Assembly (NCBI GenBank): GCA_963842395.1
Contig: CAWJGJ010000001.1
Span: 1,834,889 to 1,898,888, forward strand
Length of the DNA stretch: 64,000 bases
Direction of reading: 5' to 3'
DNA from: an uncultured Acidimicrobiales bacterium
GTDB taxonomy: Bacteria > Actinomycetota > Acidimicrobiia > Acidimicrobiales > VFJN01
The notes under the pieces: model-generated
Told to the model about the DNA's origin: nothing
Database searches by the model: none
What the model saw: the letters and a program-made list of their open reading frames with translations, nothing else
Part shown: positions 26,478 to 60,745 of the stretch, piece by piece
Numbering within the stretch: position 1 is the first letter of the stretch
Layout: each line of letters opens with the position of its first letter
Translations under genes and position numbers: made by a program

Positions 26478-26494
26478 GACCGAATATTTGTTCC
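26478..26494 (-). promoter_or_regulatory. AT-rich recurrent box, copy a (GACCGAATATTTGTTCC)
   Basis: 21 nt upstream of the SDR start at GTG 26456. Confidence 0.45.
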
Positions 26495-26538
26495 GCACGC
26501 TAGTCCCCGTGCCGGCGGCCCCGGCAATCGGCGCGGCC

Positions 26539-27336
26539 TCAGCCGTCCCCCTCGGGCAGGTAGGCGTCGATCATCTCGACCAGGCCCGCGGTCACCACGG
26601 GATCGTCGGTGAGCGGACCGGCGACCGCGGCCCGTGCGGCTTCCCGCGGAGGCAGGCCCTCGGCGACGAGGCGCCCCGCGGCGATCAGCACGCGGGTCGA
26701 CGCCACCTCCCGGAGCCCTGCGGTCTCCAGGCGGCGGATCGCCTGGCCGAGCAGCACAAGCTGCGCCGCCCTCTCGGGCTCGACGCCGGCCTCGTGCGAG
26801 ACGATCTTCTCCTCGACGTCGGGCGGCGGGAAGCCCAGCTCGATCGCGATCATGCGCTGGCGCGTCGAGTCCTTGAGGTCCTTGAGGACGCTCTGGTACC
26901 CGGGGTTGTAGGACACCACCAGGCAGAAGCCCGGAGCGGCGTCAAGGACCACGCCGAGGCGATCGATCGGCAGCTGGCGCCGGTGGTCGGCGAGCGGGTG
27001 GATCACCACGGTCGTGTCCTGCCGGGCCTCGACGACCTCGTCGAGGTAGCAGATAGCGCCCTCCCGCACGGCCCGGGTCAGCGGCCCGTCGACCCAGCGC
27101 GTCTCGCCGCCCTGGAGGAGGAAGCGCCCGACGAGGTCGGCGGTGGTGAGGTCGTCGTGGCACGACACCGTGACGAGCGGCCGATCGAGGTCGTGGGCCA
27201 TTGCCTCGACGAACCGGGTCTTCCCGCACCCGGTCGGCCCCTTCAGCATGACCGACAGCCCCTGCCGGAACGCCGCGGTGAACACCTGCTCCTCGCTGCC
27301 GACGGGCACATAGTAGGGCCGCGGCCCGGTGGTCAT
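26539..27336 (-). CDS. CbbQ/NirQ/NorQ/GvpN-family AAA+ (MoxR-class) ATPase
   Basis: 265-aa sub-ORF from ATG 27336. PYYVPVGSEE...LKGPTGCGKT (Walker A), ICYLDEV (Walker B) and CHDDLTTADLVGR are typical of the CbbQ/NorQ subfamily. An ATGA overlap links it to the upstream VWA gene. Confidence 0.8.
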   Translation of the reverse strand: MTTGPRPYYVPVGSEEQVFTAAFRQGLSVMLKGPTGCGKTRFVEAMAHDLDRPLVTVSCHDDLTTADLVGRFLLQGGETRWVDGPLTRAVREGAICYLDEVVEARQDTTVVIHPLADHRRQLPIDRLGVVLDAAPGFCLVVSYNPGYQSVLKDLKDSTRQRMIAIELGFPPPDVEEKIVSHEAGVEPERAAQLVLLGQAIRRLETAGLREVASTRVLIAAGRLVAEGLPPREAARAAVAGPLTDDPVVTAGLVEMIDAYLPEGDG

Positions 27337-29099
27337 GAGGTCCTCCTGTGAAGCTCGAGCCGCACCCGGCTGCGCTCCCTGCGCTGGAACACGCGGCGCT
27401 GCGCCTCCGCCGAACGCAGCGCGGCGCGCAGCAGCGGTCCGATCAGCTCCGGCAACTGCTCGGGGGTGGGGATCGTGGCGTGGGCCGCGGTGCCGAACAC
27501 CCGCCGGAGCGCCGCCGGCTCGGTGCCGGCCCCGATGCTGAGACAGAGGCAACCCGTGCCCCGGCGGCGGACCTCGGTGAGGGCGCGCCGTGCGTCGGCC
27601 TCGCCGTACGGGCCCTCGTAGCCGTGGTCGTACGCGAACCCGTCCGAGAGGACGAGGAGGACCCGGCGGGCGGTCCCGCCGCGCTCCTCCAGCACGGTCC
27701 CCCCGTGGCGGATGGCGGCGCCGAGCCTGGTGTAGGCCGCCGGCACGAGGCCGCCGAGGCGCCGGATGGCCCGGCCGTCGAGCTGGTCGTCGAACCGCTT
27801 CACCCGCGTGACGTGCACCGCCCGCCGGCCCTGGGAGTTGAAGGCGTACAGCGCCACGCGGTCGCCCAGGTCGTGGAGCGCGGTCGTCAGCGCCGCGGCG
27901 GCCGACCGCTGGTGCTCGTGCACCGTCCGGCCCGCCGCACCGGGCTCCCCCGCCGAGCCGGAGATGTCGAGCAGGACCAGGACGGCGAGGTCGCGTCGAC
28001 GGCGGAGGCTTTCGACGTAGACCGCGTCGTCGGGCGGCGAGCCCGCCAGCACCTCCACCCGGGCCTCGACCACGGCGTCGATGTCGATGTCGTCGCCCTG
28101 CATCTGCCGGTGGCTGCGGGTGAGGCCGGTGCCGAGGCGGGCGAGCGGTCGCCGCAGCGCCGCGCCGTCGGGCACATCCATCGGCGCCAGGTCGGCGGGA
28201 CGGGGGTCGCGCTCGTGCACGGTGCACCAGCCTGGGCGGTAGCGCCGCCGGTTGGCGTCCCACTCGGGATACGTCCTCGCCCGTGGCACGAACGCCTCGG
28301 TCGCGTCGTGCGCCTCCGGCACACCGTCGGCGTGCGCGGCCCGACGGCGGTCCCCGGGCCCGGCCCGGCCGGCATGGGTCGGCGTGTCCGCGCCCGCGGG
28401 ACCGCCGCCACCGCGCTCGCGCGTCGGGCTGAGCAGGCGCTGGAGCAGTCGCCCGAGCACTCCCCCGCCCCCCACCGGGCTCGACAACATGTGTCCCACG
28501 CTCGGCCCGTCACCGTCGTCGTCGAGATCGTCGTCGAGATCGTCGACGCCTGATCGGCCTGCCCCCGCCGGTGAGCCAGGAGCCTGGTCCGGCGACGGCC
28601 CGACGGCCTCGGCTCGTTCGAGTGCGGCGAGCAGCCGGCGCGGCCGGATCGTGCCGAAGGCTCCCGGCGGATCGTCGAGCACCCGGCCACCCCGGGCGAT
28701 CGCCAGCGAGGCCTCGGCCGCATCGGGCCCCGACCCGACCCCGCGGTCGGTCAACGCCCGCACGACCGGGGGGAGGAGCCCGTCGTTCGCCGCCAGAGCG
28801 CGGTGACCCTCCACGGCGAGATAGCGCCGGGCCAGCGCCGACCGGCGGCCGAGCTGCCGCACGACGCGCGCCTCGAGGCTCCCGGCGGCGAGGAGCGAGG
28901 CCTGCACCGCCACCATGCGGATCTGCTCGGTCGGGGTGGCCCGGGCGTCGACGAACACCGTCGTGCCGTCGGTCCAGGCGGGCTCGCCGGGGCCGCCGTC
29001 GGCGACCTCGAGCGTGCGCCCCCCGAGCGCCGACGCCAGCAGCCGGAGCCGATCGACGCCCGTGGCGTGGGCCGCGTCGTCCACTGCCAGACCTAACAT
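27333..29099 (-). CDS. NorD/CbbO-like von Willebrand factor A domain protein
   Basis: 588 aa. C-terminal VWA with MIDAS LLDISGS...LVLSDG, an acidic linker (DDLDDDLDDDGDG) and a long N-terminal region as in NorD/CbbO. The start could be ATG 29099 or GTG 29081 (ambiguous). Confidence 0.7.
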   Translation of the reverse strand: MLGLAVDDAAHATGVDRLRLLASALGGRTLEVADGGPGEPAWTDGTTVFVDARATPTEQIRMVAVQASLLAAGSLEARVVRQLGRRSALARRYLAVEGHRALAANDGLLPPVVRALTDRGVGSGPDAAEASLAIARGGRVLDDPPGAFGTIRPRRLLAALERAEAVGPSPDQAPGSPAGAGRSGVDDLDDDLDDDGDGPSVGHMLSSPVGGGGVLGRLLQRLLSPTRERGGGGPAGADTPTHAGRAGPGDRRRAAHADGVPEAHDATEAFVPRARTYPEWDANRRRYRPGWCTVHERDPRPADLAPMDVPDGAALRRPLARLGTGLTRSHRQMQGDDIDIDAVVEARVEVLAGSPPDDAVYVESLRRRRDLAVLVLLDISGSAGEPGAAGRTVHEHQRSAAAALTTALHDLGDRVALYAFNSQGRRAVHVTRVKRFDDQLDGRAIRRLGGLVPAAYTRLGAAIRHGGTVLEERGGTARRVLLVLSDGFAYDHGYEGPYGEADARRALTEVRRRGTGCLCLSIGAGTEPAALRRVFGTAAHATIPTPEQLPELIGPLLRAALRSAEAQRRVFQRRERSRVRLELHRRTS

Positions 29100-29106
29100 T
29101 TGTTCA
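29090..29106 (-). promoter_or_regulatory. AT-rich recurrent box, copy b (GACCTAACATTTGTTCA)
   Basis: Overlaps ATG 29099 of the NorD-like gene, in the region divergent from the amidohydrolase at 29205. Confidence 0.5.
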
Positions 29107-29204: not shown

Positions 29205-30205
29205 ATGACCGACGCACCCCCGGCGGGGACCGACGAGTGGCGGGCGCTGGTCGACGAGCCGATCGTCGATCCCGACCAGCGGATGGTTGACGCCCACCAC
29301 CACCTGTGGCGCCCGGGCGAGGGCATGGGCTACGGGTTGGCCGAGCTGCTCGCGGACGTCGGCAGCGGGCATGACGTGGCGCGGACGGTGTTCGTCGAAT
29401 GCGGGTCGTCCTACCCGCGGGTGGACCGCCGGAGCTGGCGCCCGTGGGAGAGACCGAGTTCGTGGCGGGCGCGGCCGCCGACAGCGGTGGCCTGATCGGG
29501 GGCATCGTCGCCCACGCCGACCTGCGGCTCGCCAAGCTCGACGACATCCTCGACGCCCACGTCGACGCAGGCCGGGGGCTCCTGCGGGGCATCCGCCACT
29601 CGCTGGCGCGCGGCGACCGGGCCGACGGGCTGACGATCCCCGGCCGGGCACCGGCGGGACTGTCGGAGGACCCCGGGTTCCGGGCCGGGGTGGCCCTGCT
29701 GGGCGCCCGCGGGCTCACCTACGACACCTGGCAGTACCACTACCAGGCCCGGGAGTTCCTCGACCTCGCCCGGGCGGTGCCCGACACGCTCATGGTGCTC
29801 GATCACTTCTGCACGCCCCTCGGGGTGGGCCGCTTCGCCGGCCGGCGCGACGAGCTCTTCGACGCCTGGCGGGACGACATCACGGAGATCGCCCGCTGCG
29901 ACAACGTGGTGGCCAAGCTCGGCGGTCTCGCCATGCCGGACAACGGCTTCGGCTGGCACACCCGCGCGCACCCACCCACCTCCGACGAGTTCGTCGCCGC
30001 CCAGGGCCGCTACTACCTCCACATGCTCGACTGCTTCGGCGCGGACCGCTGCCTGTTCGAGTCGAACTTCCCCGTCGACCGCCTCTCGCTGTCCTACCGG
30101 ACGCTGGGCAACGCGGTGAAGAAGGTCCTGCGCGACTGCTCGGCCGCCGAGCGCGACGCCGTCTTCCACGGCACCGCCACACGCGTCTATCGGCTCGACG
30201 TCTGA
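29205..30205 (+). pseudogene. amidohydrolase-2 family protein (COG3618-like), single frameshift
   Basis: Frame A gives MTDAPP...MVDAHHHLW...VFVECGSSY. Frame B continues AGGPPELAPVGETEFVAG...LDHFCTP...FESNFPVD. The switch is at the CCC run 29414-29416; one extra C would restore the frame. Confidence 0.7.
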
Positions 30206-30376
30206 CCGCCGGCCAACCGGGCGCCGGTGCCCGCCCGCCGGCGGGACGTGGGAAACGGTGCGGCCTCTGGCACACTGACGGCCGCCCGGCGCGAAGCGTC
30301 CCTGATTCAGCACGTCTCGTGTGATCCGCGCCGGCCTCCAGCGACGAACAACCGCCCCATGGAGAGGACTTGCCGC

Positions 30377-30955
30377 ATGGACGATCGACGTCGGGGCCGT
30401 TGGGCGGAGCAGGTGCTGGTCGAGCGTCTGTCCCGCGGCGACGAGACCGCCCTCGCCGACCTCTACGACCGCTATGCGGGCTTCGTGCACGCCCTGGCCC
30501 TGCGCGTCGTCGCCAACCGGCCCGCAGCCGAGGACATCACCCAGGACGTGTTCGTCTTCCTGTGGGAGCACCCGGAGCGGATCGAGCCCGGGCGGGGCAG
30601 CCTGCGGGGGTTCCTCGGGACCGTGACCCACCGCCGGGCCGTCGACGTCGTCCGGCGGGAGGAAGCCCGCAAGCGCCGCGAGGAGCGGGCCGGGCCGGGG
30701 GACGCCGTCCCGCCACCCGACGAGACCGAGGCGGTGATCCACTCCGACACCCGCGGCAAGGTTCGCACCGCGGTCGACCTCCTCCCCGAGGCGCAACGGC
30801 GAGCGGTCGAGCTCGCCTACTTCCACGGCTACACGTACCGGCAGGTCGCGGTGGCACTGGGCATACCCGAGGGCACCGCCAAGTCGCGGATGCGCCTGGC
30901 GCTGGCCCGGATCGCCGAGATCCTCCAACCCGAGCTGAGTGAGCGATGGACATGA
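30377..30955 (+). CDS. ECF sigma factor
   Basis: ATG 30377, 8 nt after GGAGAGGA. Sigma-2 region (DLYDRYAGFVHALALRV, DITQDVFVFLWE) and sigma-4 region (YRQVAVALGIPEGTAKSRMRLAL). Confidence 0.8.
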   Translation: MDDRRRGRWAEQVLVERLSRGDETALADLYDRYAGFVHALALRVVANRPAAEDITQDVFVFLWEHPERIEPGRGSLRGFLGTVTHRRAVDVVRREEARKRREERAGPGDAVPPPDETEAVIHSDTRGKVRTAVDLLPEAQRRAVELAYFHGYTYRQVAVALGIPEGTAKSRMRLALARIAEILQPELSERWT

Positions 30956-32087: not shown

Positions 32088-33308
32088 TCACGGCCCGCTC
32101 CCGGCGGGCGCGGCGACGGCGGTGTCGGGGATGCCGAACAGGGCGCGGGCGTTGCCGCCCAGGAAGAGCCGCCGGTCGCGCTCGTCCGGGAAGCCGTCGG
32201 CCAGGCCCTCGAGATCGTGGATGTACCCGGGCGTGTGATCGGGGTGGGGGAAGTCGGACGCCCACAGGAACCGATCGGCGCCGAACCGCTCGGCCAGGTG
32301 GGGGATGGTGCGCTCGTCCGGGTCGCAGGAGACCCACACCCGCTCGCGGAAGTAGTCGCTCGGCTTGTGCTCGAGTGGCACCCGGGTGCCGATCCAGGTG
32401 TGGCCGTAGACGGCGTCGATGCGGTCGAGCCAGTAGCCGATCCACCCGCCGCCCGACTCCAGGACCAGCACCTTCAAGCCGGGGAAGCGGTCGAAGACGC
32501 CGTAGTCGAACAGGGTGGTGAACTGCTGTCGCACGCCGTCGGAGGCGGTGACCGAGGCCAGGAGTCGCAGCTTGCGCACGTTCTCCCACCCGCCCATGCG
32601 GGTGCCCTTCGTCCACTGGGGCTCGAAGGTCGGGTGGATGGCGAACGGCACGCCGAGGTCCTGGGCCGCCGCGAACACCGGGTCGTTGTCGGGGTGGCCC
32701 AGGGGCCGCCCATCGTGGCTGAACGGGCACACGTAGGCGCCCCGGGCGCCCTCACCGACCGCCCGCTCCAGCTCGCGGGCTGCCGCGGCGGGGTCGGTCA
32801 GCGACAGGTGGGCGGTGGGCACGAGCCGGTCGTTGCCCGCGCAGAGCTCGCAGATCCAACGGTTGTAGGCCCGCGTGTAGGCCTGGCTCAGCTCGGGGTC
32901 GGTGAGCTCGGCCTCCCACAGCAGTCCGATCGTGGTGTAGAGGACGGCGGCGTCGATGCCCTCGGCGTCCAGCAGCTCGATCCGCTCGCCCGCGTCCATC
33001 GACCCGTAGGGCGCCTCGTCCAGGTAGGTCCGGTCGGGATCGAGCTGCATCGAGCGCAGGTCGGGGTCGCCCATGGCGCCGAGCACCGACACCGAGCCGC
33101 GGCTGCTCATCACCGACCGCTCGCCGCCGATCTCCAAGGCCTCCAGCCCGTCGTCGCCGACGACGATGCGCAAGGCCCGGTCGCGGTACCGGGGCTCGAG
33201 GTAGGTCTCCCACAGGTCCGGCGGCTCGAGGACGTGCCCGTCGGCGTCGACGGCTCCCGGGTAACGGAGCCGGGCGGTGGCGTGAAGGGGCTTCGTGCTC
33301 GTCGGCAT
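32088..33308 (-). CDS. amidohydrolase-2 family metallo-enzyme
   Basis: 406-aa sub-ORF from ATG 33308. Motifs VDADGHVLEP and WASDFPHPDH. Confidence 0.8.
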   Translation of the reverse strand: MPTSTKPLHATARLRYPGAVDADGHVLEPPDLWETYLEPRYRDRALRIVVGDDGLEALEIGGERSVMSSRGSVSVLGAMGDPDLRSMQLDPDRTYLDEAPYGSMDAGERIELLDAEGIDAAVLYTTIGLLWEAELTDPELSQAYTRAYNRWICELCAGNDRLVPTAHLSLTDPAAAARELERAVGEGARGAYVCPFSHDGRPLGHPDNDPVFAAAQDLGVPFAIHPTFEPQWTKGTRMGGWENVRKLRLLASVTASDGVRQQFTTLFDYGVFDRFPGLKVLVLESGGGWIGYWLDRIDAVYGHTWIGTRVPLEHKPSDYFRERVWVSCDPDERTIPHLAERFGADRFLWASDFPHPDHTPGYIHDLEGLADGFPDERDRRLFLGGNARALFGIPDTAVAAPAGSGP

Positions 33309-33310
33309 GG

Positions 33311-34093
33311 TCACCGTCCTCGGAAGTGGGGGTCCCGCCGCTCCAGGAACGCGGCGACGCCCTCGCGGTGGTCGTCGGTACCGAACAGCTCGGCCAGGCT
33401 GCGGCTCACCCAGGCGCCGAGCTCGGGCCAGTCCGGGTCGAGCGCCAGCCGCAGTCCCTGCTTGATCCGCTGGACCGCCAGCGGCGGGTTGGCGGCGATC
33501 TCGGCGGCGAGGCCCATCGCCGCCGGGAGCAGCTCGGCGTGGGGCACGACCCGCGACGCCAGGCCCATGGCGTGGGCCTCGGCGGCGTCGACGATGCGGC
33601 CGGTGAACAGCAGCTCGGCGGCCCGCTCCCGCCCCACGAGCTGGGCGAGCCGGCCGATGCCGGGGACGTCGGTGCAGAGACCCCGCTTCACGAACAGCTC
33701 GCCGAACCGGGCCCGCTCGGAAGCGACCCGGATGTCGGCCATCAGCGCCAGCTCCATGCCCCATCCCACCGCCGGTCCGTTGACGGCGGCGATCACCGGG
33801 ACGTCGGTGTGGAGGAGGGCGTCGGCGGCCGGCGTGAGGCGGGGCCGGGCGGCCAGGTCGGCGGACGTCCCCTTGCCGGCGTCGCGCATGATCTGCTTCA
33901 CGTCGTCGCCGGAGCAGAAGGCCGGGTCGGCCCCGGTGATCACGAGGCAGCGGGCGGTCGTGGACCGCACCACCTGCTCCAGCTCGGCGTAGGTGGTGAA
34001 CGTGAGGGCGTTGCGGGCCTCGGGCCGGTCGAGCGTCAGCACGCCGACGTGGTCGCGCTCCTCGTAGGTCAGCTCGGTGGGCTCAGCGGGCAC
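33311..34093 (-). CDS. enoyl-CoA hydratase/isomerase family protein
   Basis: GTG 34093 overlaps the ligase stop. Motifs ITGADPAFCSGDD and AAVNGPAVGWGMELALMADIRVA. Confidence 0.8.
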   Translation of the reverse strand: MPAEPTELTYEERDHVGVLTLDRPEARNALTFTTYAELEQVVRSTTARCLVITGADPAFCSGDDVKQIMRDAGKGTSADLAARPRLTPAADALLHTDVPVIAAVNGPAVGWGMELALMADIRVASERARFGELFVKRGLCTDVPGIGRLAQLVGRERAAELLFTGRIVDAAEAHAMGLASRVVPHAELLPAAMGLAAEIAANPPLAVQRIKQGLRLALDPDWPELGAWVSRSLAELFGTDDHREGVAAFLERRDPHFRGR

Positions 34094-35815: not shown

Positions 35816-36415
35816 GTGGAGGAGCGCCGCACGCGCCCAGGCCGGGTCAACCTCATGCGCACCGCCATCGCACTGATGGGCGAGCACGGCTACGAGGGCA
35901 CGTCGACCCGCGACATCGCGAGCGCCGCGGGCGTGAGCGTGGCAGCGCTCTACTACCACTTCCCGAGCAAGCTCGACCTGCTCCGCGAGTTCCTCCACGA
36001 GGCCCACGACGTCGTGGTCGGGCGGGTCGAGCGCGAGATCGCCGCTGCCGGCCCGACGGCCCGGGCCAGGCTCGACGCCGCCGTCGCCGCCCTGGTGTGG
36101 TCCAACATCCACGACGGTTGGGCCCGGCAGGCTGCGCTGGTCGCCTGGCGGGAGCAGGGCCGGCTCGACCTGCCCGACCAGAAGCTGATCGCGAAGAAGC
36201 GCCTGCAGTTGGTCGAGATGATCGGGCGCGTGCTGGAGGAGGGCGTCGCCGGCGGTGAGTTCGCCACCGGCGAGCCCAGCGAGGTCGCCCGCGCCATCCT
36301 CACGTTGTGCATCTCGGTGGCCGATCCCTTCGCCGAGCCTCAACCGGCCCTGGCCAGGGTCATCGAACTCCACCAGCGGCTCGCAGCCGCGCTCGCCGAC
36401 ACACCGCCCGCCTGA
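35816..36415 (+). CDS. TetR-family transcriptional regulator
   Basis: HTH TSTRDIASAAGVSVAALYYHFPSKLDL. Flanked on both sides by the same 20-nt dyad box. Confidence 0.8.
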   Translation: MEERRTRPGRVNLMRTAIALMGEHGYEGTSTRDIASAAGVSVAALYYHFPSKLDLLREFLHEAHDVVVGRVEREIAAAGPTARARLDAAVAALVWSNIHDGWARQAALVAWREQGRLDLPDQKLIAKKRLQLVEMIGRVLEEGVAGGEFATGEPSEVARAILTLCISVADPFAEPQPALARVIELHQRLAAALADTPPA

Positions 36416-36539: not shown

Positions 36540-36556
36540 GAACCTAAGATTTGTTA
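36540..36556 (-). promoter_or_regulatory. AT-rich recurrent box, copy c (GAACCTAAGATTTGTTA)
   Basis: 36 nt upstream of SBP ATG 36593. Contains TAAGAT on the plus strand. Confidence 0.5.
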
Positions 36557-36592
36557 CGCGAGAGCCGTGTTCTCGCGCGACGGGGGGATCAC

Positions 36593-37900
36593 ATGGGAGT
36601 TTCGGGGGAAGCTTCGGGGCACGCCGGTCGGCACAGGCACGCACTGGCGATCGCAGCAGTGGGCACGCTGCTGCTCGGGGTCGTTGCATGCGGCGGCGAC
36701 GACACGTCGTCGCCGAGCCCGTCGGGCTCGGAGGACAGCCCGCCGGCGGACGAGCTGCTCGGGCCCGAGGAACCGGCATCCGGCGAGCCGCTGCGCATCG
36801 GGATGGTCTCGGACGGCCAGGCCCCGGCGTTCGACGCCCGGTCCGAGCTGCGGGCGGTCGAGGCGACGGTCGAGTACTGGAACGCCCACCGGGCTGGGAT
36901 CGGCGGCCGGCCGATCGAGCTGGTGACCTGCGAGACGCACGCCGATCCGGCCGGCGGCACGGACTGCGGCAACCAGATGGTCGAGGAGGACGTCGTCGCC
37001 GTCGCCCTCGGGCAGTCCACGGTGGCGGAGTCGGTCTGGGAGCCGCTGCACGAGGCCGGCATCCCCACGCTGTTCTCACTGGCCATCGGCGATGCCATGC
37101 TCGGCGACCCGGACACGAGCTTCGTGCTCTCCAACCCGCTCACCACGGCCTTCGGCCTCCCGATCTCCGTGGCCCAGGACGAGGGCGCCGACAAGGTCAC
37201 GTTCGTCCTCATCGACGTCCCCCAGGCGCTCACGGTGTTCGAAGGCGACAGCGCCGATCGCATCCTCGAGAACGCCGGGCTCGACTACGACGTCGTCAAG
37301 GTGCCGCCGGGAACCGCGGACATGACGTCGCAGATGGCCGAGGTCGTCGAGGGCGGTGCGGGGGTCGTGCAGGTGGTCGGCCACGACGCGTTCTGCATCT
37401 CCGCCCTGCAGGGGCTGCACAGCGTCGGGTACGAGGGCGCGATCACCGGGATCTCGCAGTGCTTCACGGACGCCACCCGGGAGGCGATCCCCGGCGACCA
37501 GCTCGAGGGGACCTACGTCACGTCCACCATCGCCCTCGGCGCGACCGACGACCCGACCTACCAGCTGTACGAGGCGGTCATGGATGCGTATGGAGACGAT
37601 GTCGAGGACGTCGACAACAACGTGCCCATGGCGGGTTACACCGTGATGGCATCCCTCGCGTCGGCCCTCGACGGGATCTCGGGCGACGTCACGCCGGCGA
37701 CGGTCACCGAGGCCATCAAGGCGATGCCGGAGCAGGAGATGCCCGGAGGGGGCGGCGCGAGCTTCCGATGTGGCGGGTCCGCCATGACGACGATGCCGGC
37801 GGTGTGCACCAACCAGTGGCTCCGGGCGACGCTCGACGCCGACGGGCAGCCGGCGGGCTACGAGGTCGTCGACTCGACGGAGATCCTCGCCGGGCTGTAG
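36593..37900 (+). CDS. ABC-transporter substrate-binding lipoprotein (LivK/Peripla_BP_6-like), orphan
   Basis: ATG 36593 after GGGGGGA. Lipobox LLLGVVACGGDD. The overall pattern matches branched-chain amino acid/amide type SBPs. No permease or ATPase gene is adjacent. Confidence 0.65.
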   Translation: MGVSGEASGHAGRHRHALAIAAVGTLLLGVVACGGDDTSSPSPSGSEDSPPADELLGPEEPASGEPLRIGMVSDGQAPAFDARSELRAVEATVEYWNAHRAGIGGRPIELVTCETHADPAGGTDCGNQMVEEDVVAVALGQSTVAESVWEPLHEAGIPTLFSLAIGDAMLGDPDTSFVLSNPLTTAFGLPISVAQDEGADKVTFVLIDVPQALTVFEGDSADRILENAGLDYDVVKVPPGTADMTSQMAEVVEGGAGVVQVVGHDAFCISALQGLHSVGYEGAITGISQCFTDATREAIPGDQLEGTYVTSTIALGATDDPTYQLYEAVMDAYGDDVEDVDNNVPMAGYTVMASLASALDGISGDVTPATVTEAIKAMPEQEMPGGGGASFRCGGSAMTTMPAVCTNQWLRATLDADGQPAGYEVVDSTEILAGL

Positions 37901-37987: not shown

Positions 37988-39277
37988 TCACGAGGTCACC
38001 TCGAGGTGGAGCGCCCGCAAGCCGCGGAGGACGTACGTCGGGTCGTATTCGTAGCGTCGGGCGCCGGGAGGGCCGTGCTCCGCCTCGGAGATGCGGATGT
38101 CGGACGTCCGATCGAAGAGGCGGTGGAGTGCGACCCGGGCCTCGACGCGCGCCAGGGGCCCTCCGGGGCACGAGTGGATGCCACGTCCGAATGCGACCTG
38201 CTCGCGCGCGTTCGGGCGGTCGACGTCGAGGTCGTCGGGCGCATCGAAGCGGCGGGGGTCGCGGTTCGCGGCGTGGGGGAACACGGCGACCGTGGCGCCT
38301 GCGGGGATGTCGACGCCCGCGAGCGTGGTGCTCACCCGAGCCAGCCGCGAGACCGTCTTGACCGCGCCCTCCAGCCGCAGCACCTCCTCCAGGAAGTCGG
38401 GAAGCCGATCCCGGTCTGTGCGCAGGCGGCGCTGGAGCGCAGGGTCGTCGCCGAGGATCCGCAGCGCAGCGGCGATGATGCGGGCCGTGGTGTCCTGACC
38501 CGCGGCGAAGAGGAACGTCGCCGTCCGCACGACGTCGATGACCTCGGGTAGGCGGCCGTCCGGATAGGTCGCGGTCGCCAGGTGGGTGAGGACGTCCCCG
38601 CGTGGGTTGCGGCGGCGATCCTCGACGTACGCGGTGAACGCGTCGTTCAGGAACGCCAGCGGATCGAGCAGCACGTCGGTCGCTTCGCCGCCGACCGCCG
38701 TCCCCCGGTCGACACCCAGCTGCCGGGCGAAGGTCCGGTGGTCCTCCTCGGGCACCCCGAGGAGGTCGGCGATGACGAGGGCCGCGAACGGCTGCGAGAA
38801 GTCCCTGATCACCTCGAACCGGCCGGCGGCCAGTGCGTGGTCGAGCTGGCGGTCGGCCAGCCGCCAGATGAACGCCTCGTTCTCCTGCAGGCGCTTCGGC
38901 GTGAACAGCCGCATGAGGAGACCGCGCAGCGCGGTGTGCGCGGGCTGGTCCTGCGTCACCAGGTACTCCCCCATCGGGAGCCCGGCGCGGTGCTCCTCGA
39001 TGACGTCGGTGATGTCGTCCCCGTGCGGGGTGACCGGCAGCCCGGGGAACGGGCCGGTCACCGCGATGCACGACGAGAACGTCCGGTGGTCGCGCCACAC
39101 GTCCAAGGCCTCGTCGTAGCCGGTGACGGCCACCACGCCGTGGTGAGGCAGAGGGGTCACGGGGTGCATCCGGCGCAGCCGGTCGAAGTACGGGAACGGG
39201 TCGTCGACCAGGGACAGGTCGGTGAAGATGTCGGGGACGTCGTCGTTCGTCATCTCGAGGCCGTCTCCGTCTGTCAC
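37988..39277 (-). CDS. cytochrome P450
   Basis: 429 aa. Heme-ligand loop FGRGIHSCPG and an EXXR motif. A GTGA overlap links it to the upstream ferredoxin gene. Confidence 0.85.
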   Translation of the reverse strand: MTDGDGLEMTNDDVPDIFTDLSLVDDPFPYFDRLRRMHPVTPLPHHGVVAVTGYDEALDVWRDHRTFSSCIAVTGPFPGLPVTPHGDDITDVIEEHRAGLPMGEYLVTQDQPAHTALRGLLMRLFTPKRLQENEAFIWRLADRQLDHALAAGRFEVIRDFSQPFAALVIADLLGVPEEDHRTFARQLGVDRGTAVGGEATDVLLDPLAFLNDAFTAYVEDRRRNPRGDVLTHLATATYPDGRLPEVIDVVRTATFLFAAGQDTTARIIAAALRILGDDPALQRRLRTDRDRLPDFLEEVLRLEGAVKTVSRLARVSTTLAGVDIPAGATVAVFPHAANRDPRRFDAPDDLDVDRPNAREQVAFGRGIHSCPGGPLARVEARVALHRLFDRTSDIRISEAEHGPPGARRYEYDPTYVLRGLRALHLEVTS

Positions 39278-39471
39278 GTCTCGGTCGAGAGTGCCTGCTC
39301 GGGGCAGCTCCGGACGGCGCGGGCCGCCTGCGCCTCATGGCGGTCCGGGACGTGCCCGTCGGGCACGACGAGGGCGACATGGCCCTCCTCGTCGGGACCG
39401 AAGATCTCGGGAGCCAGGTCGTAGCACCGCCCGTGGCCCTGGCAGCGTTCGTGGTCGACGACGATCTGCAC
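39274..39471 (-). CDS. small ferredoxin (3Fe-4S/4Fe-4S type, P450 redox partner)
   Basis: 65 aa. CQGHGRC...SCP cysteine pattern. GTG start with TACGCT 7 nt upstream, which looks leaderless. Confidence 0.75.
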   Translation of the reverse strand: MQIVVDHERCQGHGRCYDLAPEIFGPDEEGHVALVVPDGHVPDRHEAQAARAVRSCPEQALSTET

Positions 39472-39501: not shown

Positions 39502-39518
39502 GGACAAATGTTTGGTTT
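39502..39518 (+). promoter_or_regulatory. AT-rich recurrent box, copy d (GGACAAATGTTTGGTTT, opposite orientation)
   Basis: Lies between the ferredoxin-P450 operon (GTG 39471) and the tandem TetR gene (39658). Confidence 0.5.
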
Positions 39519-39657
39519 GCAGGTCGTCGGCGGAACCCGGGGTCGATCTGCTGGTGGGCCGCACCTCGTGGCGCGTCGCCACCGGCAGTACCGGCGCCGA
39601 CCAGGGCTAACATCCGCTCCACGTTCGGTACCGTCGCCGTCAGGTCGATGCCCAGGA

Positions 39658-40911
39658 GTGGACGCCGTGTCGGTAGACGGGGCCCGTAGAACCGAGATCC
39701 TCGAGACCGCCGCGAGCTTGTTCGCGTCCTCGGGGATCCGCACCTCGCTCAAGCAGATCGCCGACGCCTGCGGCATCCTGCCGGGCAGCCTCTACCACCA
39801 CTTCGAGTCCAAGGAAGCGATCATCGTCGAGCTGATCGAGCGGTACCGGGCCGACCTCGACGACATCGCCAAGACGGGGCTCGACGAGTTGCACGAGCCG
39901 GGGCGGGCGCCCGTCTCCGACAGGATCGTGGCGCTCAGCTCCGCCATCGCCGCCTGCGCCGTTCGGCATCGGGCCGCGGTGCTCCTGACCTTCTACGAGC
40001 CACCCTCGGGTTCGGGCGACGAGCTGGTGCGCGTCGCCCAGGGGACGCCGCTGGAGATCGAGGCCGTGATGCTCGAGATCCTCCGGGCCGGCCGGGAGAG
40101 CGGAGACATCCGACCGGGCATCGACCTCGAGACGCTGGCCGAGCGGCTCTGCCAGACACTGCTCTACATCAGCCTCGGCGTGTTCCGCGACGTCCGCGGC
40201 GCCGACCAGCTGCCGGCGATCAGGTGCCGCATCCTGCTGGAGGGCGTGGCCGTCGCGGCGCCGACGAACGCCGCGCTCGACGCGTCGAGCGCGTTCCTGG
40301 CCGCTCAGCAGGTGGTCGACTCCTGGGACAAGGCCGAGGACGAGGAGGACGAGCGGGTCGCGCAGCTCCGAGCCGTCGCCCGCGCCGAGTTCGGCCGGCG
40401 GGGCTACGAGGCCACCACGATCAGGGACATCGCCGCGGCCGCCGGGCTCAGCACCGGCAGCGTCTACCGCATGATCGGCTCCAAGGACGACCTCCTCGCG
40501 TCGATCATGCAGTCGATACCCACGAAGGTGCGATCGGCCTGGACGAGCGTGCTCGAGTCCGACGCCACGAGCGTCGAGAAGCTCGACGCTCTGATGTGGA
40601 CCAACATCAACGTCGTCGACCGGTTCCGCGACGAGTACAACATCCAGCTCGCCTGGCTGCGCGAGTCGCCGCCCACGTCCTCCGACCTCGGGCAGACCTT
40701 CTCGGCGCGCCTGAACGACCTCAAGACGCTGCTCGCCGACGGCACCCGTTCCGGCGAGCTCCACCTCGAGGGCCCGTCAGCCGACATCCGCACCTGGGCG
40801 CTGCTCGACCCCATGTGGATGCACGAGACCATCGTGCACAAGGTCGGTCCCCGCGCCGCCCTCGCGCTCGCCCGCGACACCGTCCTGCGCGGCGCCGCCC
40901 GGCGCCCCTGA
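39658..40911 (+). CDS. tandem (double) TetR-family regulator
   Basis: Two complete TetR units in one chain. The first HTH is SLKQIADACGILPGSLYHHFESKEAI and the second is TTIRDIAAAAGLSTGSVYRMIGSKDDL. Start is GTG 39658 or 39667, after AGGAG. Confidence 0.7.
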   Translation: MDAVSVDGARRTEILETAASLFASSGIRTSLKQIADACGILPGSLYHHFESKEAIIVELIERYRADLDDIAKTGLDELHEPGRAPVSDRIVALSSAIAACAVRHRAAVLLTFYEPPSGSGDELVRVAQGTPLEIEAVMLEILRAGRESGDIRPGIDLETLAERLCQTLLYISLGVFRDVRGADQLPAIRCRILLEGVAVAAPTNAALDASSAFLAAQQVVDSWDKAEDEEDERVAQLRAVARAEFGRRGYEATTIRDIAAAAGLSTGSVYRMIGSKDDLLASIMQSIPTKVRSAWTSVLESDATSVEKLDALMWTNINVVDRFRDEYNIQLAWLRESPPTSSDLGQTFSARLNDLKTLLADGTRSGELHLEGPSADIRTWALLDPMWMHETIVHKVGPRAALALARDTVLRGAARRP

Positions 40912-40973: not shown

Positions 40974-42178
40974 TCAGGCAGTGCGGTGCAGCAGCATCGG
41001 GAAGCGCTCGAGCGTCCGGATCCCCGCCGTGTAGTTGAGCTCCACGCCCGGCTTCAGGCAGTAGTCGGGTATCCGCCGGTGCCACTCGCGCAGCGCGACG
41101 CGCAGCTCCAGGCGCGCCAGGTGCGACCCCAGGCAACGATGGATCCCTCCACCGAACGCGAGGTGGCGGTTGGTGTCCCGGTCCCACCTGAGCTCCCCCG
41201 CCTCGGGGAACTCGGCGTCGTCGACGTTGGCGGCGCCGATGATGGCCATCACGTGCTCGCCGGCACTGATCGGGCAACCGCCGACCTCGGCGTCGCCCGT
41301 GGCGATGCGGGCGACCGCCATGACCGGGGTCTCCCACCGGAGCAGCTCCTCGACCACCGTCGGGATCGTCTCCGGTTCGTCGACGAGCTTGCGGCGGGCG
41401 TCCGGATCCTGGGCGAGCCGGCCGAAGAAGCAGTCGAGCGACGCCGTCACCGTGTCGAGACCGGCGATCAGGAAGAGGAAGCAGATGTCGAGGATGTCCT
41501 CGCGGGTGAGCCGGTCACCGTCGACCTCGACGTGCAGGAAGTGACTGAGGAGGTCGTCGCGTCGCTCCCCGCGCGCTCGTCGAGCACGCGCTCGAAGTAG
41601 GCGTAGATCGAGTCCGCGGTCTGCTGCTGGTGCGCCTCGGTCTCGGGATGGCCGAACTCGTGCCCGACGACGACGTCGGGGCGGATCACGCCGTCCTTCA
41701 TGCGCACGAACGCCGGCAGCTCGTCGAGCGGGAGGCCGAACAGCGTGAGGAACACCTGGGACGGGAACGGCACCGAGAACTGCGCGGCGAAGTCGATCTC
41801 GTCATCGTCGACGAACGCATCGACGAGGTCGTTCACGAGCCGCGTGACCGGCTCCTCGAGCGCCTTCATCCGCTGCGGCGCGAACAGGGGGTCGAGGATC
41901 CTGCGGTAGGTCCGGTGCGCCGGCGGATCGATCTGCAGCGGGATCAGCGGCCGCCTGGTCTTCAGGTCGTGGGCCGACATGTTGGACGAGTACAGGTCGG
42001 GATGGCGGAGGACCTCGTCCACCCCCGACCGGGACGTGACGACGACACCGACCCCGTCGACGCGCAACACCGGGGCGCTCTCCCGGAGAGCCACGTAGGT
42101 CGGCTGCGGGTTCCGCGCCAGCTCGGGGCTCATCAGCTGAGCCATCGCAACCCCATCGGTCTGCGTCGGTTCGCGCAT
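40974..42178 (-). pseudogene. cytochrome P450, single frameshift
   Basis: The N-terminal frame (ATG 42178) reads up to ...YFERVLDERAG. The C-terminal frame continues ERRDDLLSHFLHVEVDGDRLTREDILDICFLFLIAGLDTVTASLD...FGGGIHRCLG. The switch is at the CCCC run 41567-41570 (plus strand); one extra base would restore the frame. Confidence 0.7.
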
Positions 42179-42197: not shown

Positions 42198-42214
42198 GAA
42201 CCTAATGTTTGTTC
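42198..42214 (-). promoter_or_regulatory. AT-rich recurrent box, copy e (GAACCTAATGTTTGTTC)
   Basis: 19 nt upstream of ATG 42178 of the frameshifted P450. Confidence 0.5.
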
Positions 42215-42558: not shown

Positions 42559-42570
42559 GAGACCTCCTTG

Positions 42571-42612
42571 CACAAATCGACAATCATCGATATATTCACC
42601 GTTGTCCATACG
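42571..42612. promoter_or_regulatory. AT-rich arsR/arsI divergent control region with a TCGA-N6-TCGA dyad
   Basis: cacaaATCGAcaatcATCGATATattcaccgttgtccata stands out against the GC-rich background, between divergent arsR and arsI/cadI starts. Confidence 0.5.
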
Positions 42613-42630
42613 TTACCGGAGGAACCCACC

Positions 42631-43107: not shown

Positions 43108-43148
43108 CGACTCCCATCGACCGGGCGGGGGGCCCGCCCGGTCACGAC

Positions 43149-44380: not shown

Positions 44381-44424
44381 GCGGCGCCCCGGCTCGCCGT
44401 CCGGTGCCGCCTGATCGTCCCGGG

Positions 44425-45120
44425 TCACGGTCGTCCTCGCTCGCTGGGGGTGGGCACGGACGCGGCGACGGTGGTGATGCGGTCGTCGAGCTCGGCCAGC
44501 GCCGCGTCGAATGCCCTCGCCCGCCCCGCCTCCACGGGATCGGGGACCGACCAGTGCCACCACTCGACCGGAGGGTCGAGCTCCTCGTGGGCCCGGTCGC
44601 ACACGGTCACGACGACGTCGACCCGGGTGTCCGCCCGGTCGAGGGGGCGTGGCCCAGCGGCCGTGAGGTCGAGGCCGGCACGCCTGGCGGCGGCCACGGC
44701 GCCCGGGTGCACACGGTCGGCCGGATGGGTGCCGGCGCTGTCGGCCCCGTCGCCGGTGCGCGCCCGCCACAGCGCGGCCGCCAGCTGCGAACGTGCCGAG
44801 TTGTGGGTGCAGATGAACAGCGCGCGCCCGGCGCGGGGGCGGTCGAGCAGGGCCAGGTCGCGCAGCACCTGGTGGCGAAGCCGCACGTACCGGCGCCGCC
44901 GGTCCCCGGAGGAGGTGTGGCGATCGATCACGCCCGCGCGCTCCAGGACGTCCAGGTGATGGGCGAGGAGGTTCCCCGGCAGCCCGAATCGGGCGGCCAG
45001 CACCGAGGGGGCGCGGTCCGAGCACCGGAGGTCGTCGACGATGGCGAGCCGCACCGGCTCGCCCAGGGCCGCGTGCACCGCCGCCCGTCGTTCGATCGCC
45101 CCGTCCCCCGACCCGTCCAT
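44425..45120 (-). CDS. ArsR HTH domain fused to an LMW-PTPase (ArsC-like) domain
   Basis: N-terminal GEPVRLAIVDDL...LLAHHLDVLERAGVI (ArsR wHTH). C-terminal ALFICTHNSARSQLA (CX5R) ...VVTVCD. Confidence 0.75.
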   Translation of the reverse strand: MDGSGDGAIERRAAVHAALGEPVRLAIVDDLRCSDRAPSVLAARFGLPGNLLAHHLDVLERAGVIDRHTSSGDRRRRYVRLRHQVLRDLALLDRPRAGRALFICTHNSARSQLAAALWRARTGDGADSAGTHPADRVHPGAVAAARRAGLDLTAAGPRPLDRADTRVDVVVTVCDRAHEELDPPVEWWHWSVPDPVEAGRARAFDAALAELDDRITTVAASVPTPSERGRP

Positions 45121-45183: not shown

Positions 45184-46380
45184 TCAGGTGCCGCCGGGAC
45201 CGCACCGGCCCCCGTCGGCCGGTGGCTGCACGTCCGGACGTCCATCCGGCTGAGCGCTCATCCACGACGACCAGATGCCCTCCGAGTACGGGCCCGGCTG
45301 GCCGTTCTCCTCGTAGAACCCCTGCGGGTCGTAGACCTTGGCTTCCGGATACGGCCACGGGCACGCCACCGAGGTGGCGACCCTGGTGTCGCGGATGATG
45401 CCGAAGGCCAGGAAGTACCCGAGGTAGGCGACGTTCAGGATCGCGAGCATCACCAGGAAGGTGCCGAGCGCCGGGCGCCCGGCGAAGATCCGCACCCGCT
45501 GGGCCAGCTTCTCCGCGACGGTCCGGCCGGTGTCGTCCCGGTAGAGCAGCACCCCGGCGGGGATCATCACCAGGGTGACGAGCGAGGACTCCCACAGCAG
45601 CGGGAACTGGAAGGCGGTGCCCGTGAACACCGACCCGAACGGGATGACCTGCGTGTAGATGTACAGGCCGGTGCGGATGCACAGGATCTCGAGGACGGCG
45701 TCGAAGACGAACCCGATCGGGTAGATCAGCAACGACAGGCTGATGAGCGGGTGGCGTGACACGAAGGAGTCGGTGGGCCGACGGGCCTGGAGCCTGCGCA
45801 GGATCCACGATGCCGGGAAGAACGGGGTCACGTAGAAGAGCGCGTACCCGATGACGACGAGCGGCTCGACCACGGGCGCGATCGAGAACAGCGGCCAATC
45901 CTCGGGCCAGTGCCACAGCTCGGGGTTGTAGGCGGCGTACGGCGACCAGTTCACGAGCGGATCCCACCAGACGATCCCGGTGGCGGCGATGACCATCAGC
46001 AGGATGGGGTGGCGGGGGTACCGCCGCCAGGCGAGCACCACGCTCCCCACGAGCAGCACCATGCTGACGAGGGTCCCGACCTGCAGGATCGTCACCCAGT
46101 TGGTCCAGCCGAACAGGTAGGTCACCGGTCGCGGCGCGCCGGTCACCTCCGGGTTGCGCACGCGGTCGGACGACTCGACCCCCGTGCGGGCGTAGTAGGC
46201 GATGACGCAGATGAGCGCGAAGGCGAGCGCCCAACCCCCGATCACGAGCCGGCGCTTCGCGACGGGGCCCGTGCCGTGGTCCCGGGTCGGCGTCGTCAGG
46301 CCGGCCTCGACGCCAGGGCTCCCGACCGGGGCGCTCGAGCCTGGGTGTTCCCGAACATCGGCTTCGCTGGGATGGCTCAC
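45184..46380 (-). CDS. polytopic membrane protein, possibly AveC (spirocyclase)-family
   Basis: 398 aa, about 7-8 TM, Trp-rich loops (WWDPLVNWSPYAAYNPELWHWPEDWP; AFQFPLLWES) that I recall from AveC-like proteins. GTG start 6 nt after TAGGTT with TTGACG 16 nt further upstream. Confidence 0.55.
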   Translation of the reverse strand: MSHPSEADVREHPGSSAPVGSPGVEAGLTTPTRDHGTGPVAKRRLVIGGWALAFALICVIAYYARTGVESSDRVRNPEVTGAPRPVTYLFGWTNWVTILQVGTLVSMVLLVGSVVLAWRRYPRHPILLMVIAATGIVWWDPLVNWSPYAAYNPELWHWPEDWPLFSIAPVVEPLVVIGYALFYVTPFFPASWILRRLQARRPTDSFVSRHPLISLSLLIYPIGFVFDAVLEILCIRTGLYIYTQVIPFGSVFTGTAFQFPLLWESSLVTLVMIPAGVLLYRDDTGRTVAEKLAQRVRIFAGRPALGTFLVMLAILNVAYLGYFLAFGIIRDTRVATSVACPWPYPEAKVYDPQGFYEENGQPGPYSEGIWSSWMSAQPDGRPDVQPPADGGRCGPGGT

Positions 46381-46385: not shown

Positions 46386-46402
46386 CAACCTAACATTTGT
46401 TT
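46386..46402 (-). promoter_or_regulatory. AT-rich recurrent box, copy f (CAACCTAACATTTGTTT), part of a full promoter
   Basis: On the minus strand: TTGACG-N16-TAGGTT-N6-GTG(46380). The box covers the spacer plus the -10. Confidence 0.6.
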
Positions 46403-57215: not shown

Positions 57216-57218
57216 CCC

Positions 57219-58912: not shown

Positions 58913-58965
58913 CCCGACCGCGCCCACCGATCCCGGGGGCGCTCCAGCGATCGGTCGCGGCGCAC

Positions 58966-59823: not shown

Positions 59824-59913
59824 CGCCCCTGTCCTTCCGTCGCTCGTCGGGCGCGACCACCATCGCCCAGGTCGGCGGCCGGGCACATCGGGCGTTCACC
59901 CCATCACCGCGTG

Positions 59914-60585
59914 TCACTCGTCAGCCGCGAGCCAGGCCTCGTACTCGTCGACCTGCGCGGGCCCGTAGGTGCCCCAACCGTCGACTCCGAGGCAGAACGG
60001 ATGTCCGGCGGGGTCGGCGTACACGAGGTTGTCCGGGCGCTCCGGCATCGGCAGGTGCACGGCTCCGAGGCGCTCGCCGCGCTCACGGACCGAGGGGTCG
60101 GCGAACGCCAGGTCCAGGTGGATCTGGGCCGGGTACGCCGGGTCCGGCCACCTCGGTGGCTGATGGGCGCCGTGATCATCGCCCGGTCTCACACCGCCAT
60201 CCAGGTAGAGGCAGAAGGGATGGCCGACCGCATCGGCGAGGACCCGATGGTCCGCCAGCTCCTCGAGCTTCGTCGCGCCGCATGACAGCACGAGGTCTTC
60301 GGCGCTGTCGAGGTCCCGTACACCGATGTCGAGGTGCACCTGGTGGGGACGGTCGGGGTCCCGCCACCTGGGCGGCGGATCCCGAGGCGCGTGCTCGAAG
60401 CCGATCTCCGGGGTGCGCCCGTCCTCGTGGATCAGCTTGTGGTAGCCGACGAAGATGTGCCGCATGCCGAGGAGCTCGCCGTACATCGCCGCGAGCGACG
60501 CGCCGCGCCCGGTGGTCCAGTAGTCGTCGCTCTCCGCTTCCGGGCCGGGATGCCCGATCTGGATGATGCCGATCAGCCCGCGCAT
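59914..60585 (-). CDS. tandem VOC/glyoxalase-like domain protein
   Basis: Two repeats ending ...LADAVGHPFCL and ...YADPAGHPFCL. The start at ATG 60585 is assumed; the tracked ORF start is 60648. Confidence 0.6.
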   Translation of the reverse strand: MRGLIGIIQIGHPGPEAESDDYWTTGRGASLAAMYGELLGMRHIFVGYHKLIHEDGRTPEIGFEHAPRDPPPRWRDPDRPHQVHLDIGVRDLDSAEDLVLSCGATKLEELADHRVLADAVGHPFCLYLDGGVRPGDDHGAHQPPRWPDPAYPAQIHLDLAFADPSVRERGERLGAVHLPMPERPDNLVYADPAGHPFCLGVDGWGTYGPAQVDEYEAWLAADE

Positions 60586-60727
60586 CCGGGCAGTGCCCCG
60601 TCCATGGACGTTCGTCTCGTCACGTCGTGTCAGGTTCGTCGCTGGCAAGGACGCAGGAGGAAGGCGCAGCCGTAGCTGCGGCGACGACGAGGACGCCGCC
60701 AGCGGCGGACCTGGCCGGCGTGGCGGG

Positions 60728-60745
60728 GCGCAAACGTTTGTGGAC
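60728..60745 (-). promoter_or_regulatory. AT-rich recurrent box, weaker copy g (GCGCAAACGTTTGTGGAC)
   Basis: Shares CAAAC-TTTGT-AC with copy d. Lies between the carboxypeptidase stop and the VOC gene. Confidence 0.3.

Follow-up and report, generated by a model that had tools for sequence, protein, structure and literature searches.

A compact, asymmetric AT-rich box as the probable operator of a double-domain TetR-family regulator in an uncultured Acidimicrobiales bacterium

A 64-kb stretch of DNA from an uncultured Acidimicrobiales bacterium (GenBank assembly GCA_963842395.1, contig CAWJGJ010000001.1, positions 1,834,889 to 1,898,888; hereafter the window) has a G+C content of 72.6% and carries, in front of six of its genes or operons, an AT-rich box of 16-18 bp with the shared core RACCWAAYATYTGTTC. 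What does this box do, and which protein reads it? The comparative and structural-predictive evidence presented here makes it likely that the box is the operator of a repressor with two TetR domains in one chain, encoded in the same window (39667-40911, plus strand), and the regulon so defined very probably spans Acidimicrobiia to Mycobacterium with a conserved set of oxidation genes, as judged from sequence comparison.

The six boxes, a to f, start at positions 26478, 29090, 36541, 39502 (inverted), 42199 and 46387, as read from the sequence. A search with ACCTAACATTTGTTC allowing up to three mismatches finds these six and no others in the window, against 0.06 in dinucleotide shuffles. A position weight matrix (PWM) derived from the six boxes scores them at 28-34 bits and the best unrelated window position at 11.5 bits, and a second PWM, trained anew on 315 unique sites that stem almost entirely from outside the source genome, scores them at 21.5-27.7 bits with the next-best window position at 2.2 bits. 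The first-pass annotation had listed seven boxes, and all seven sequences are present where it placed them. The last, g at 60728, is at background level by either matrix (7.4 bits by the first, -8 bits by the retrained one) and is rejected as a member; a to f stand. Gene calls in the window were made from codon-position G+C, Pfam matches and inspection of start codons. All six boxes are intergenic by the calls based on third-codon-position G+C and Pfam, and their edges lie 5-36 nt from the nearest start codon, the start of the TetR gene being exceptional at 149 nt from box d. The earlier placement of the boxes in intergenic DNA within 0-36 nt of start codons is borne out for these six, as are the genes named beside them on the strength of Pfam, namely those for an SDR, a NorD-like protein, a substrate-binding protein, a ferredoxin-P450 pair, a second P450 and an AveC-like protein, which boxes a to f precede in that order.

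The gene divergent from the ferredoxin-P450 pair at box d encodes a 414-residue protein in which Pfam recognizes two TetR_N stretches (1.6e-28), hereafter the double TetR. With this protein as query, a scan covering one genome per species returned 471 relatives, of which the best 80 loci (53-77% identity) were used; they come from Acidimicrobiia, Mycobacterium, Mycolicibacterium, Nocardia and Frankia, with a few contigs labelled Alphaproteobacteria or Binatia. Nearly every one of these loci has several boxes, and the 1.52 Mb made up of the 80 loci and the window hold 349 box matches of at least 16 bits, versus 0-2 in block shuffles that keep the local composition. Searches with the window proteins using tblastn show that NorQ, NorD, the AveC-like protein, the SDR, P450s and a cytoplasmic Peripla_BP_6 protein (PBP) accompany the double TetR nearly everywhere. 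The arrangement is that of one to three operons: in an Acidimicrobiales relative (L034) a single box-headed operon runs P450-NorD-NorQ-PBP-AveC-SDR, in mycobacteria the set occupies two or three units, and in the window the same set is dispersed into separate units, each with a box of its own. Five of the six window boxes precede orthologues of these conserved TetR-adjacent genes, and by this comparison most of the boxed window genes are parts of a single conserved operon that here lie apart.

Boxes of at least 17 bits located between -250 and +30 of the gene start were found upstream of NorD in 64 of 69 cases, of the cytoplasmic PBP in 57 of 67 and of NorQ in 43 of 67 (an internal site). Of the double TetR orthologues themselves, 63 of 83 have such a box in the 250 nt before the gene, for the most part oriented like box d, which points to autoregulation. 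No homologue of the two other TetR genes of the window (at 35816 and 22407) or of the extracytoplasmic function (ECF) sigma factor gene at 30227 was found among the 80 loci, and the double TetR is the sole window regulator with homologues adjoining boxes in other genomes. The first-pass annotation had favoured this tandem TetR at 39.6 kb as the regulator, and conservation beside the boxes across the 80 loci argues for the same protein.

The pair of helix-turn-helix (HTH) elements in the double TetR, HTH1 (LPGSLYHHFESKE, residues ~27-50) and HTH2 (STGSVYRMIGSKD, residues ~250-273), differ in their recognition helices, and both are near-invariant among Acidimicrobiia, Mycobacterium, Nocardia, Frankia and a Binatia-labelled contig, which explains the strong conservation of the operator. 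The protein has many close relatives, with 66-87% identity in metagenomic Acidimicrobiia. An AlphaFold2 model has a pLDDT of 87 and a pTM of 0.86, and its best fold match in the PDB, as found by Foldseek, is Mce3R (PDB identifier 9b7y_A), which is matched over the full length with 428 aligned columns and TM scores of 0.66/0.70; every other PDB match covers half of the double TetR. The predicted fold is that of an intramolecular pseudo-dimer, and the N-terminal half is closest to KstR2, in both sequence and fold, and to TetR-family regulators (TFRs) that bind acyl-CoA.

The logo of the 315 unique sites reads T-n-R-A-C-C-W-A-A-Y-A-T-Y-T-G-T-T-C-C, with zero information content outside positions -1 to +17, and the same 16-mer is kept at orthologous promoters across classes whereas the surrounding intergenic DNA is not. 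The site is a quasi-palindrome with RACCWAA as its left half and TYTGTTC as its right half; the latter, read on the opposite strand as GAACARA, has the same base as the former at 5-6 of 7 positions. At position 3, 88% of the sites have C, and at the mirror position 14, 88% have T (an A in the other half-site), the half-sites being consistently ACC versus AAC. Counted with a strand-symmetric search pattern, asymmetric sites number 314 against ~60 expected; symmetric AAC...GTT sites number 54 against 15 expected and symmetric ACC...GGT sites 80 against 57. Such a consistent asymmetry between half-sites fits two different HTHs in one chain.

The double TetR and the box show features of a TFR and its operator, with an adjacent, divergent TFR gene at box d and a dyad-like site of 16-18 bp, and also those of a double TFR, with two TetR_N domains in one chain and an asymmetric operator. 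From these we infer a mechanism in which one polypeptide, folded as a pseudo-dimer like Mce3R, would place its two HTHs on similar but non-identical half-sites, reading RACCWAA on one side and TYTGTTC on the other. In each of six promoters the site would cover either the -10/spacer or the transcription start, and a repressor bound there would block RNA polymerase. A ligand would then release the repressor; an acyl-CoA-type metabolite is our guess, because the N-terminal half resembles KstR2 and FadR-type regulators. The regulon would comprise the P450, NorD/NorQ, Peripla_BP_6, AveC-like, SDR and ferredoxin-P450 genes and the gene of the repressor itself.

The placement of the boxes relative to core promoters speaks to the same question. 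In 54 of 69 cases the region upstream of NorD reads TTGACY-N17/18-TACGNT-N1/2-GAACAGATATTTGGTC, which would represent a good -35 and an actinobacterial-type -10 followed by a box that covers the putative transcription start. At a, b and d (in the last case towards the TetR gene) the box directly adjoins a TANNNT-like hexamer that is not part of it, and the box itself makes up the -10/spacer only at f and perhaps at e. A promoter scan with the E. coli-type consensus calls none of the box promoters, so that these readings depend on the actinobacterial TANNNT rule and on conservation between genomes. Since the position and orientation of the box relative to the core promoter vary among targets and are constant within each target, the box behaves as a repressor operator, and on this comparative ground it is to be read as an operator and not as a promoter element. 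The proposal in the first-pass annotation that the boxes are a shared operator overlapping promoters is supported by this variable placement with respect to the -35 and -10 and by the NorD layouts.

A scan that began from the motif and not from the regulator gave a similar association. Exact matches to ACCTAAYATTTGTTC in metagenome contigs amount to 120 loci, of which 102 are AT-rich with a median of 34% G+C, a composition at which chance matches are expected. The other 18 have at least 58% G+C, and in 12 of these one or more of the regulon families (NorD, NorQ, PBP, AveC, SDR, P450 and the double-TetR gene were counted) lies directly beside the box. Five others of the 18 high-GC contigs carry the box followed by a conserved TCTCTAYGNNCGTA (L122:3127, L124:769, L183:1559, L185:2221 and L186:6925); in L122, L124 and L186 this extended box has an MBL-fold-like gene on one side and a gene of unknown family on the other, and in L185 it precedes a P450 gene. 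The extended boxes are possibly further members of the regulon located away from the TetR gene. The box is tied to a narrow set of genes and is therefore not a general promoter feature.

Several points weigh against assigning the box to the double TetR. The box, the operon and the TetR gene are inherited together, so that their co-occurrence cannot prove which protein binds and a regulator encoded at an unlinked position is possible. Presence of the TetR was the criterion by which the loci were chosen, which is a sampling bias, and most of the 80 are mycobacterial and share ancestry, so that the sites are not independent and their counts overstate the independent evidence. About 20 of the 83 TetR orthologues have no box that reaches 17 bits in the 250 nt before the gene, the TetR start in the window is itself at a distance of 149 nt from box d, and five high-GC metagenomic contigs, all of them short, have the box beside unrelated genes (an MBL-fold gene and one of unknown family) and no TetR in view. 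Homodimeric TFRs also bind imperfect palindromes, which makes the asymmetry of the site suggestive and not a proof, and the alignment behind the AlphaFold2 model is of limited depth, with 27 sequences that are all at least 66% identical to the query. One alternative is that the box is the operator of another regulator, either one of the other TetR proteins of the window (35816-36415 or 22407-23297) or one encoded elsewhere, and the double TetR is only a passenger of the conserved cluster: co-occurrence cannot separate the TetR from an operon that travels with it, and both the quarter or so of orthologues without a strong box close upstream and the box-bearing metagenomic contigs without a TetR in view would be in keeping with this. 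We nevertheless regard it as unlikely, given that none of the 80 loci contains a homologue of any other window regulator, that the double TetR is the only regulator conserved beside the boxes from Acidimicrobiia to Mycobacteriales, that its HTHs are near-invariant as is the box, and that asymmetric half-sites fit a pseudo-dimer with two HTHs. In one further locus (L098) a double-TetR paralogue of only 32% identity is also found 148 nt from a box.

It could also be argued that the box is a promoter element, either a generic or extended -10 or a sequence recognized by an alternative sigma factor, the ECF sigma encoded at 30227-30955 being one candidate. It does hold TANNNT-like hexamers on both strands (TAACAT/TAAGAT on one and TAGGTT on the other), and at copy f TAGGTT stands 16 nt after TTGACG and 6 nt before the GTG. 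However, only six intergenic regions in 64 kb carry the box, a separate -35 and -10 precede it at the 54 NorD promoters described above, its distance to -35-like TTGAC hexamers differs among window copies b, c and f, and its orientation with respect to the gene differs between targets and is constant within a target. Conservation covers 16-18 contiguous bp, which does not resemble the bipartite motif of a sigma factor, no homologue of the ECF sigma occurs in the 80 related loci, and the motif-first scan finds a narrow set of gene families; taken together, these observations make a promoter element very improbable. Still less credible, to the point of being hardly worth entertaining, is the idea that the boxes share no regulation and are what is left of a dispersed repeat, of a small mobile element or of a recently duplicated promoter cassette. 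In favour of such an origin, rearrangement of the operon is clear in the source genome, and each fragment has a copy of the box. Against this, the box cores of the six copies are 75-88% identical while their flanks (40 nt on each side) are 31% identical, the value for random sequence being 30%; with unrelated flanks and only the core shared, the box is not a dispersed repeat. The absence of information beyond positions -1 to +17 and the retention of the 16-mer at orthologous promoters in otherwise diverged intergenic DNA point the same way. The double TetR remains the likely reader of the box.

How does this system compare with those already described? Mce3R of Mycobacterium tuberculosis (Rv1963c) is a double TFR whose intramolecular pseudo-dimer places two non-identical HTHs on an asymmetric operator (PMC11667970; PDB identifier 9b7y, determined by cryo-EM), and about 200 double TFRs have been predicted in actinomycetes (PMC3711444). 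A literature search for tandem or double TetR proteins returned only the Mce3R line of work and no other characterized member. The double TetR resembles Mce3R in having two TetR units in a chain of ~410 residues with two different HTHs, an operator that is not a true palindrome, sites in the upstream or divergent region of the regulator and at several lipid or oxidation operons, and, in some loci, paired sites tens of bp apart. However, the two proteins share 18% identity in the structural alignment, a phmmer search matches them only over residues 10-107, the N-terminal DNA-binding region (E=4e-9), and the operator probe A of Mce3R scores at most -6 bits with the box PWM. The sites of Mce3R are described as ~25 bp long and non-palindromic whereas the box is a compact 16-18 bp with halves that differ mainly at one position, and the mce3 operon is not among the targets of the double TetR. 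The low identity, the match confined to the N-terminal region and the dissimilar operator probe lead us to reject the double TetR as an orthologue of Mce3R. As a separate observation, 16 box pairs are separated by 39-110 nt, the spacing being variable and the orientations mixed (for example, L011:9816/9916, L030:15896/16004, L077:18292/18376 and L079:19674/19784), which recalls the two-site operator of Mce3R with its dimer of pseudo-dimers.

With KstR and KstR2, the actinobacterial TetR repressors of cholesterol catabolism whose operators are conserved between genera, the double TetR shares a regulon logic, in which one conserved TFR and a short conserved operator serve many promoters of P450, SDR and CoA-thioester genes in Mycobacterium, Nocardia and relatives. 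KstR and KstR2 are, however, single-domain homodimers with palindromic operators, TnnAACnnGTTnnA and AnCAAGnnCTTGnT, respectively, and the box, which reads AAY-N4-GTT inside ACC-N9-GTT, fits neither. The NCBIfam model for KstR scores the double TetR at 28 bits against a cutoff of 280. KstR2 (PDB identifiers 4w1u and 4w97) and its RHA1 homologue (PDB identifier 2ibd) are nearest to its N-terminal half in sequence and fold. Acyl-CoA-responsive TFRs (FadR of Bacillus and Thermus, FasR, AibR and PfmR) match each half of the model with TM scores to the target of 0.6-0.74, and the neighbouring genes in relatives include acyl-CoA dehydrogenase and SDRs; these TFRs differ in being homodimers.

Known motifs of other regulators were also compared with the box and rejected. 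The SOS box of LexA in Gram-positives and actinobacteria has the consensus GAAC-N4-GTTC, of which only the GTTC half fits, the other half of the box being WAAY with a conserved ACC outside it; no DNA-repair genes were found next to any copy. The iron box of IdeR/DtxR is a 19-bp palindrome, TTAGGTTAGGCTAACCTAA, with AACCTAA in both halves, and the box has this heptamer in one half only, the other being TYTGTTC. The ECF -35/-10 motifs and the ARE motifs of gamma-butyrolactone receptors do not fit the logo. Exact box strings gave no match in the relevant open-access papers.

The individual boxes and their targets are as follows. Box a (GACCGAATATTTGTTC, 26478-26493, plus strand, 24.1 bits) lies between the NorQ stop (26539) and the start of the SDR gene (25518-26456, minus strand; Pfam adh_short, 3e-43), 21 nt from the SDR GTG at 26456 with the Shine-Dalgarno sequence GGGAGGGG in between. 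Read in the SDR direction the region is TAGCGT-GCG-GAACAAATATTCGGTC, with TAGCGT abutting the box. The SDR is 52-81% identical to those of the conserved cluster, and box a corresponds to the ancestral site after NorQ, as in L003, L023, L081, L132 and L191; a box at this position heads a PBP-AveC-SDR unit in relatives. Box b (GACCTAACATTTGTTC, 29090-29105, plus strand, 27.7 bits) is upstream of a minus-strand unit (26539-29084) whose first gene encodes the NorD-like VWA protein (27333-29084) and whose second gene encodes a NorQ/CbbQ-type AAA+ ATPase (26539-27336), its ATG overlapping the NorD stop; both assignments are by Pfam. In the direction of the genes the region reads TTGACG-N18-CAGTAT-GAACAAATGTTAGGTC-N5-GTG, which leaves 5 nt to the GTG at 29084 and repeats the -35/-10/box order of the 54 orthologous NorD promoters.

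Box c (AACCTAAGATTTGTTA, 36541-36556, plus strand, 25.6 bits) is located 36 nt before the ATG at 36593 of a Peripla_BP_6 lipoprotein gene (36593-37900, plus strand; Pfam 2.2e-34), the translation of which has a lipobox-like LLLGVVAC. Boxes a, b, e and f all face their genes the other way round, and box c lies 11 nt downstream of a possible TTGACT-N17-CAGTCT. Although the lipoprotein belongs to the same Pfam family as the cytoplasmic PBP of the conserved operon, a BLASTP E-value of 0.013 led us to reject orthology, and the cytoplasmic Peripla_BP_6 protein of a relative (L023:2616-3734) has no homologue in the 64-kb window (tblastn, E<1e-5). Directly after box c, in the presumed 5' leader of the lipoprotein gene, an inverted repeat GCGAGA-N7-TCTCGC occupies 36558-36578 and may act as an RNA hairpin or as a further operator.

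Box d (AACCAAACATTTGTCC on the minus strand, 39502-39517, 21.5 bits) stands in the divergent region between the ferredoxin-P450 unit (37988-39471, minus strand) and the double TetR gene, 30 nt from the ferredoxin GTG at 39471 and 149 nt from the TetR GTG at 39667; read towards the TetR gene, TAGCTT abuts it. The unit consists of the ferredoxin (39274-39471; Pfam Fer4_15) and P450b (37988-39277; Pfam p450), homologues of which, at 47-57% identity, adjoin boxes in L139, L164, L181 and L191. The seventh-best position in the window is a weak candidate site in the same region (GGGCTAACATCCGCTC, 39604-39619, plus strand, 2.2 bits), which precedes the TetR start by 48 nt, lies 102 nt away from box d and includes a TAACAT -10-like hexamer. 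Weak sites occur at the same relative place in the closest relatives (L001 at 9933, AAGCTAACATTCGTTC; L034 at 9934, AAGCTAACATCCGTTC), and this degenerate box may be a low-affinity autoregulatory site.

Box e (AACCTAATGTTTGTTC, 42199-42214, plus strand, 26.4 bits) lies in the 44-nt gap between the stop of an ArsR gene and the start of P450a (40989-42178, minus strand), 20 nt from the ATG at 42178. The P450a orthologue of L034 heads the operon there, with a box at 18240. The window copy is split into two frames near 41560-41575: in tblastn, residues 9-223 of the L034 P450 match 42214-41567 and residues 229-416 match 41552-40989, at 81-84% identity, and P450a, which is full length relative to that orthologue, is either a pseudogene or the product of a single-base assembly or sequence error. 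Box f (AACCTAACATTTGTTT, 46387-46402, plus strand, 24.6 bits) precedes the AveC-like membrane protein gene (45184-46380, minus strand; Pfam PF17198 AveC_like, 2e-67), orthologues of which are present in 65 of the 80 loci, and is 6 nt from its GTG at 46380. It starts 5 nt past TTGACG and supplies both spacer and -10 of TTGACG-N16-TAGGTT-N6-GTG, a layout that looks leaderless-like. The promoter that the first-pass annotation had read at this copy has the sequence claimed, though it matches 8 of 12 consensus positions, which is why the E. coli-type scan does not call it.

Between the units of boxes e and f lies an arsenic-type cassette (42223-45120, minus strand) with an ArsR (42223-42609), a MIP-family channel (43149-43967) and a fusion of an ArsR-type HTH with a low-molecular-weight phosphatase/ArsC-like domain (44425-45120); it looks like an insertion into the broken operon. 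Five Amidohydro_2 genes, an acyl-CoA ligase, an enoyl-CoA hydratase and the other regulators of the window have no box. The boxless genes at 19072-20343, 20356-21597, 23182-24522, 29375-30205, 32088-33764 and 62757-63989 comprise the five Amidohydro_2 paralogues and a sigma-70-like/glyoxalase-type fusion. The first-pass annotation had regarded the boxes as marking one regulon of a catabolic island; a single regulon is supported, since the pieces of the conserved operon are boxed, but it does not take in the whole island, in which the genes just listed are boxless.

The gene set P450-NorD-NorQ-PBP-AveC-like-SDR recurs across classes (L034:11260-18279, minus strand; L023:519-6480; window 25518-29084, 40989-42178 and 45184-46380). 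Its NorQ is 78-89% identical in the other loci, a range that holds between Acidimicrobiia and Mycobacterium, whereas the TetR is only 53-60% identical. The pairing of a MoxR-type ATPase with a VWA protein suggests maturation of a metalloenzyme. No NCBIfam equivalog passes its cutoff for any protein of the cluster, and a literature search for AveC-like proteins found no functional study. It is conceivable, though we would sooner doubt than assert it, that the double TetR and its box constitute a new cross-class regulon that switches on a new enzyme system, in which the AveC-like and PBP-like proteins and the NorQ/NorD maturation pair act with P450s and the SDR on a lipid- or terpenoid-like substrate.

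With a sharply defined and highly conserved operator, the double TetR provides a second workable double-TFR family beside Mce3R, one that can test the generality of one chain bringing two HTHs to two different half-sites. If our assignment is true, the hundreds of natural sites, with halves differing at essentially one position, would allow the first assignment of HTH to half-site in a double TFR, and derepression would offer a handle on the substrate of the AveC-like/NorQD system. The box links genes without a curated family name that are widespread in soil Acidimicrobiia and in non-tuberculous mycobacteria, and its PWM is a cheap means of assigning scattered genes to the double-TetR regulon.

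Some of the loci extend the distribution of the regulator and its box. The TetR, boxes and parts of the operon occur together on contigs with non-actinobacterial labels, viz., L008 (Alphaproteobacteria, 3.9 Mb), L037 and L020 (both Binatia/'Deltaproteobacteria'), and L071 ('Sericytochromatia'), which reflects either joint horizontal transfer of regulator and operator or mislabelled bins. Some genomes have two paralogous double TetRs (as at L044:10001-11221 and 13785-14993; 53% and 48% identity to the query), with variants of the box near extra P450 and AveC-like paralogues. The distant double TetR mentioned above (L098:1972-3180) has a perfect box at its distance of 148 nt, and this type of box may be common to a wider double-TetR subfamily.

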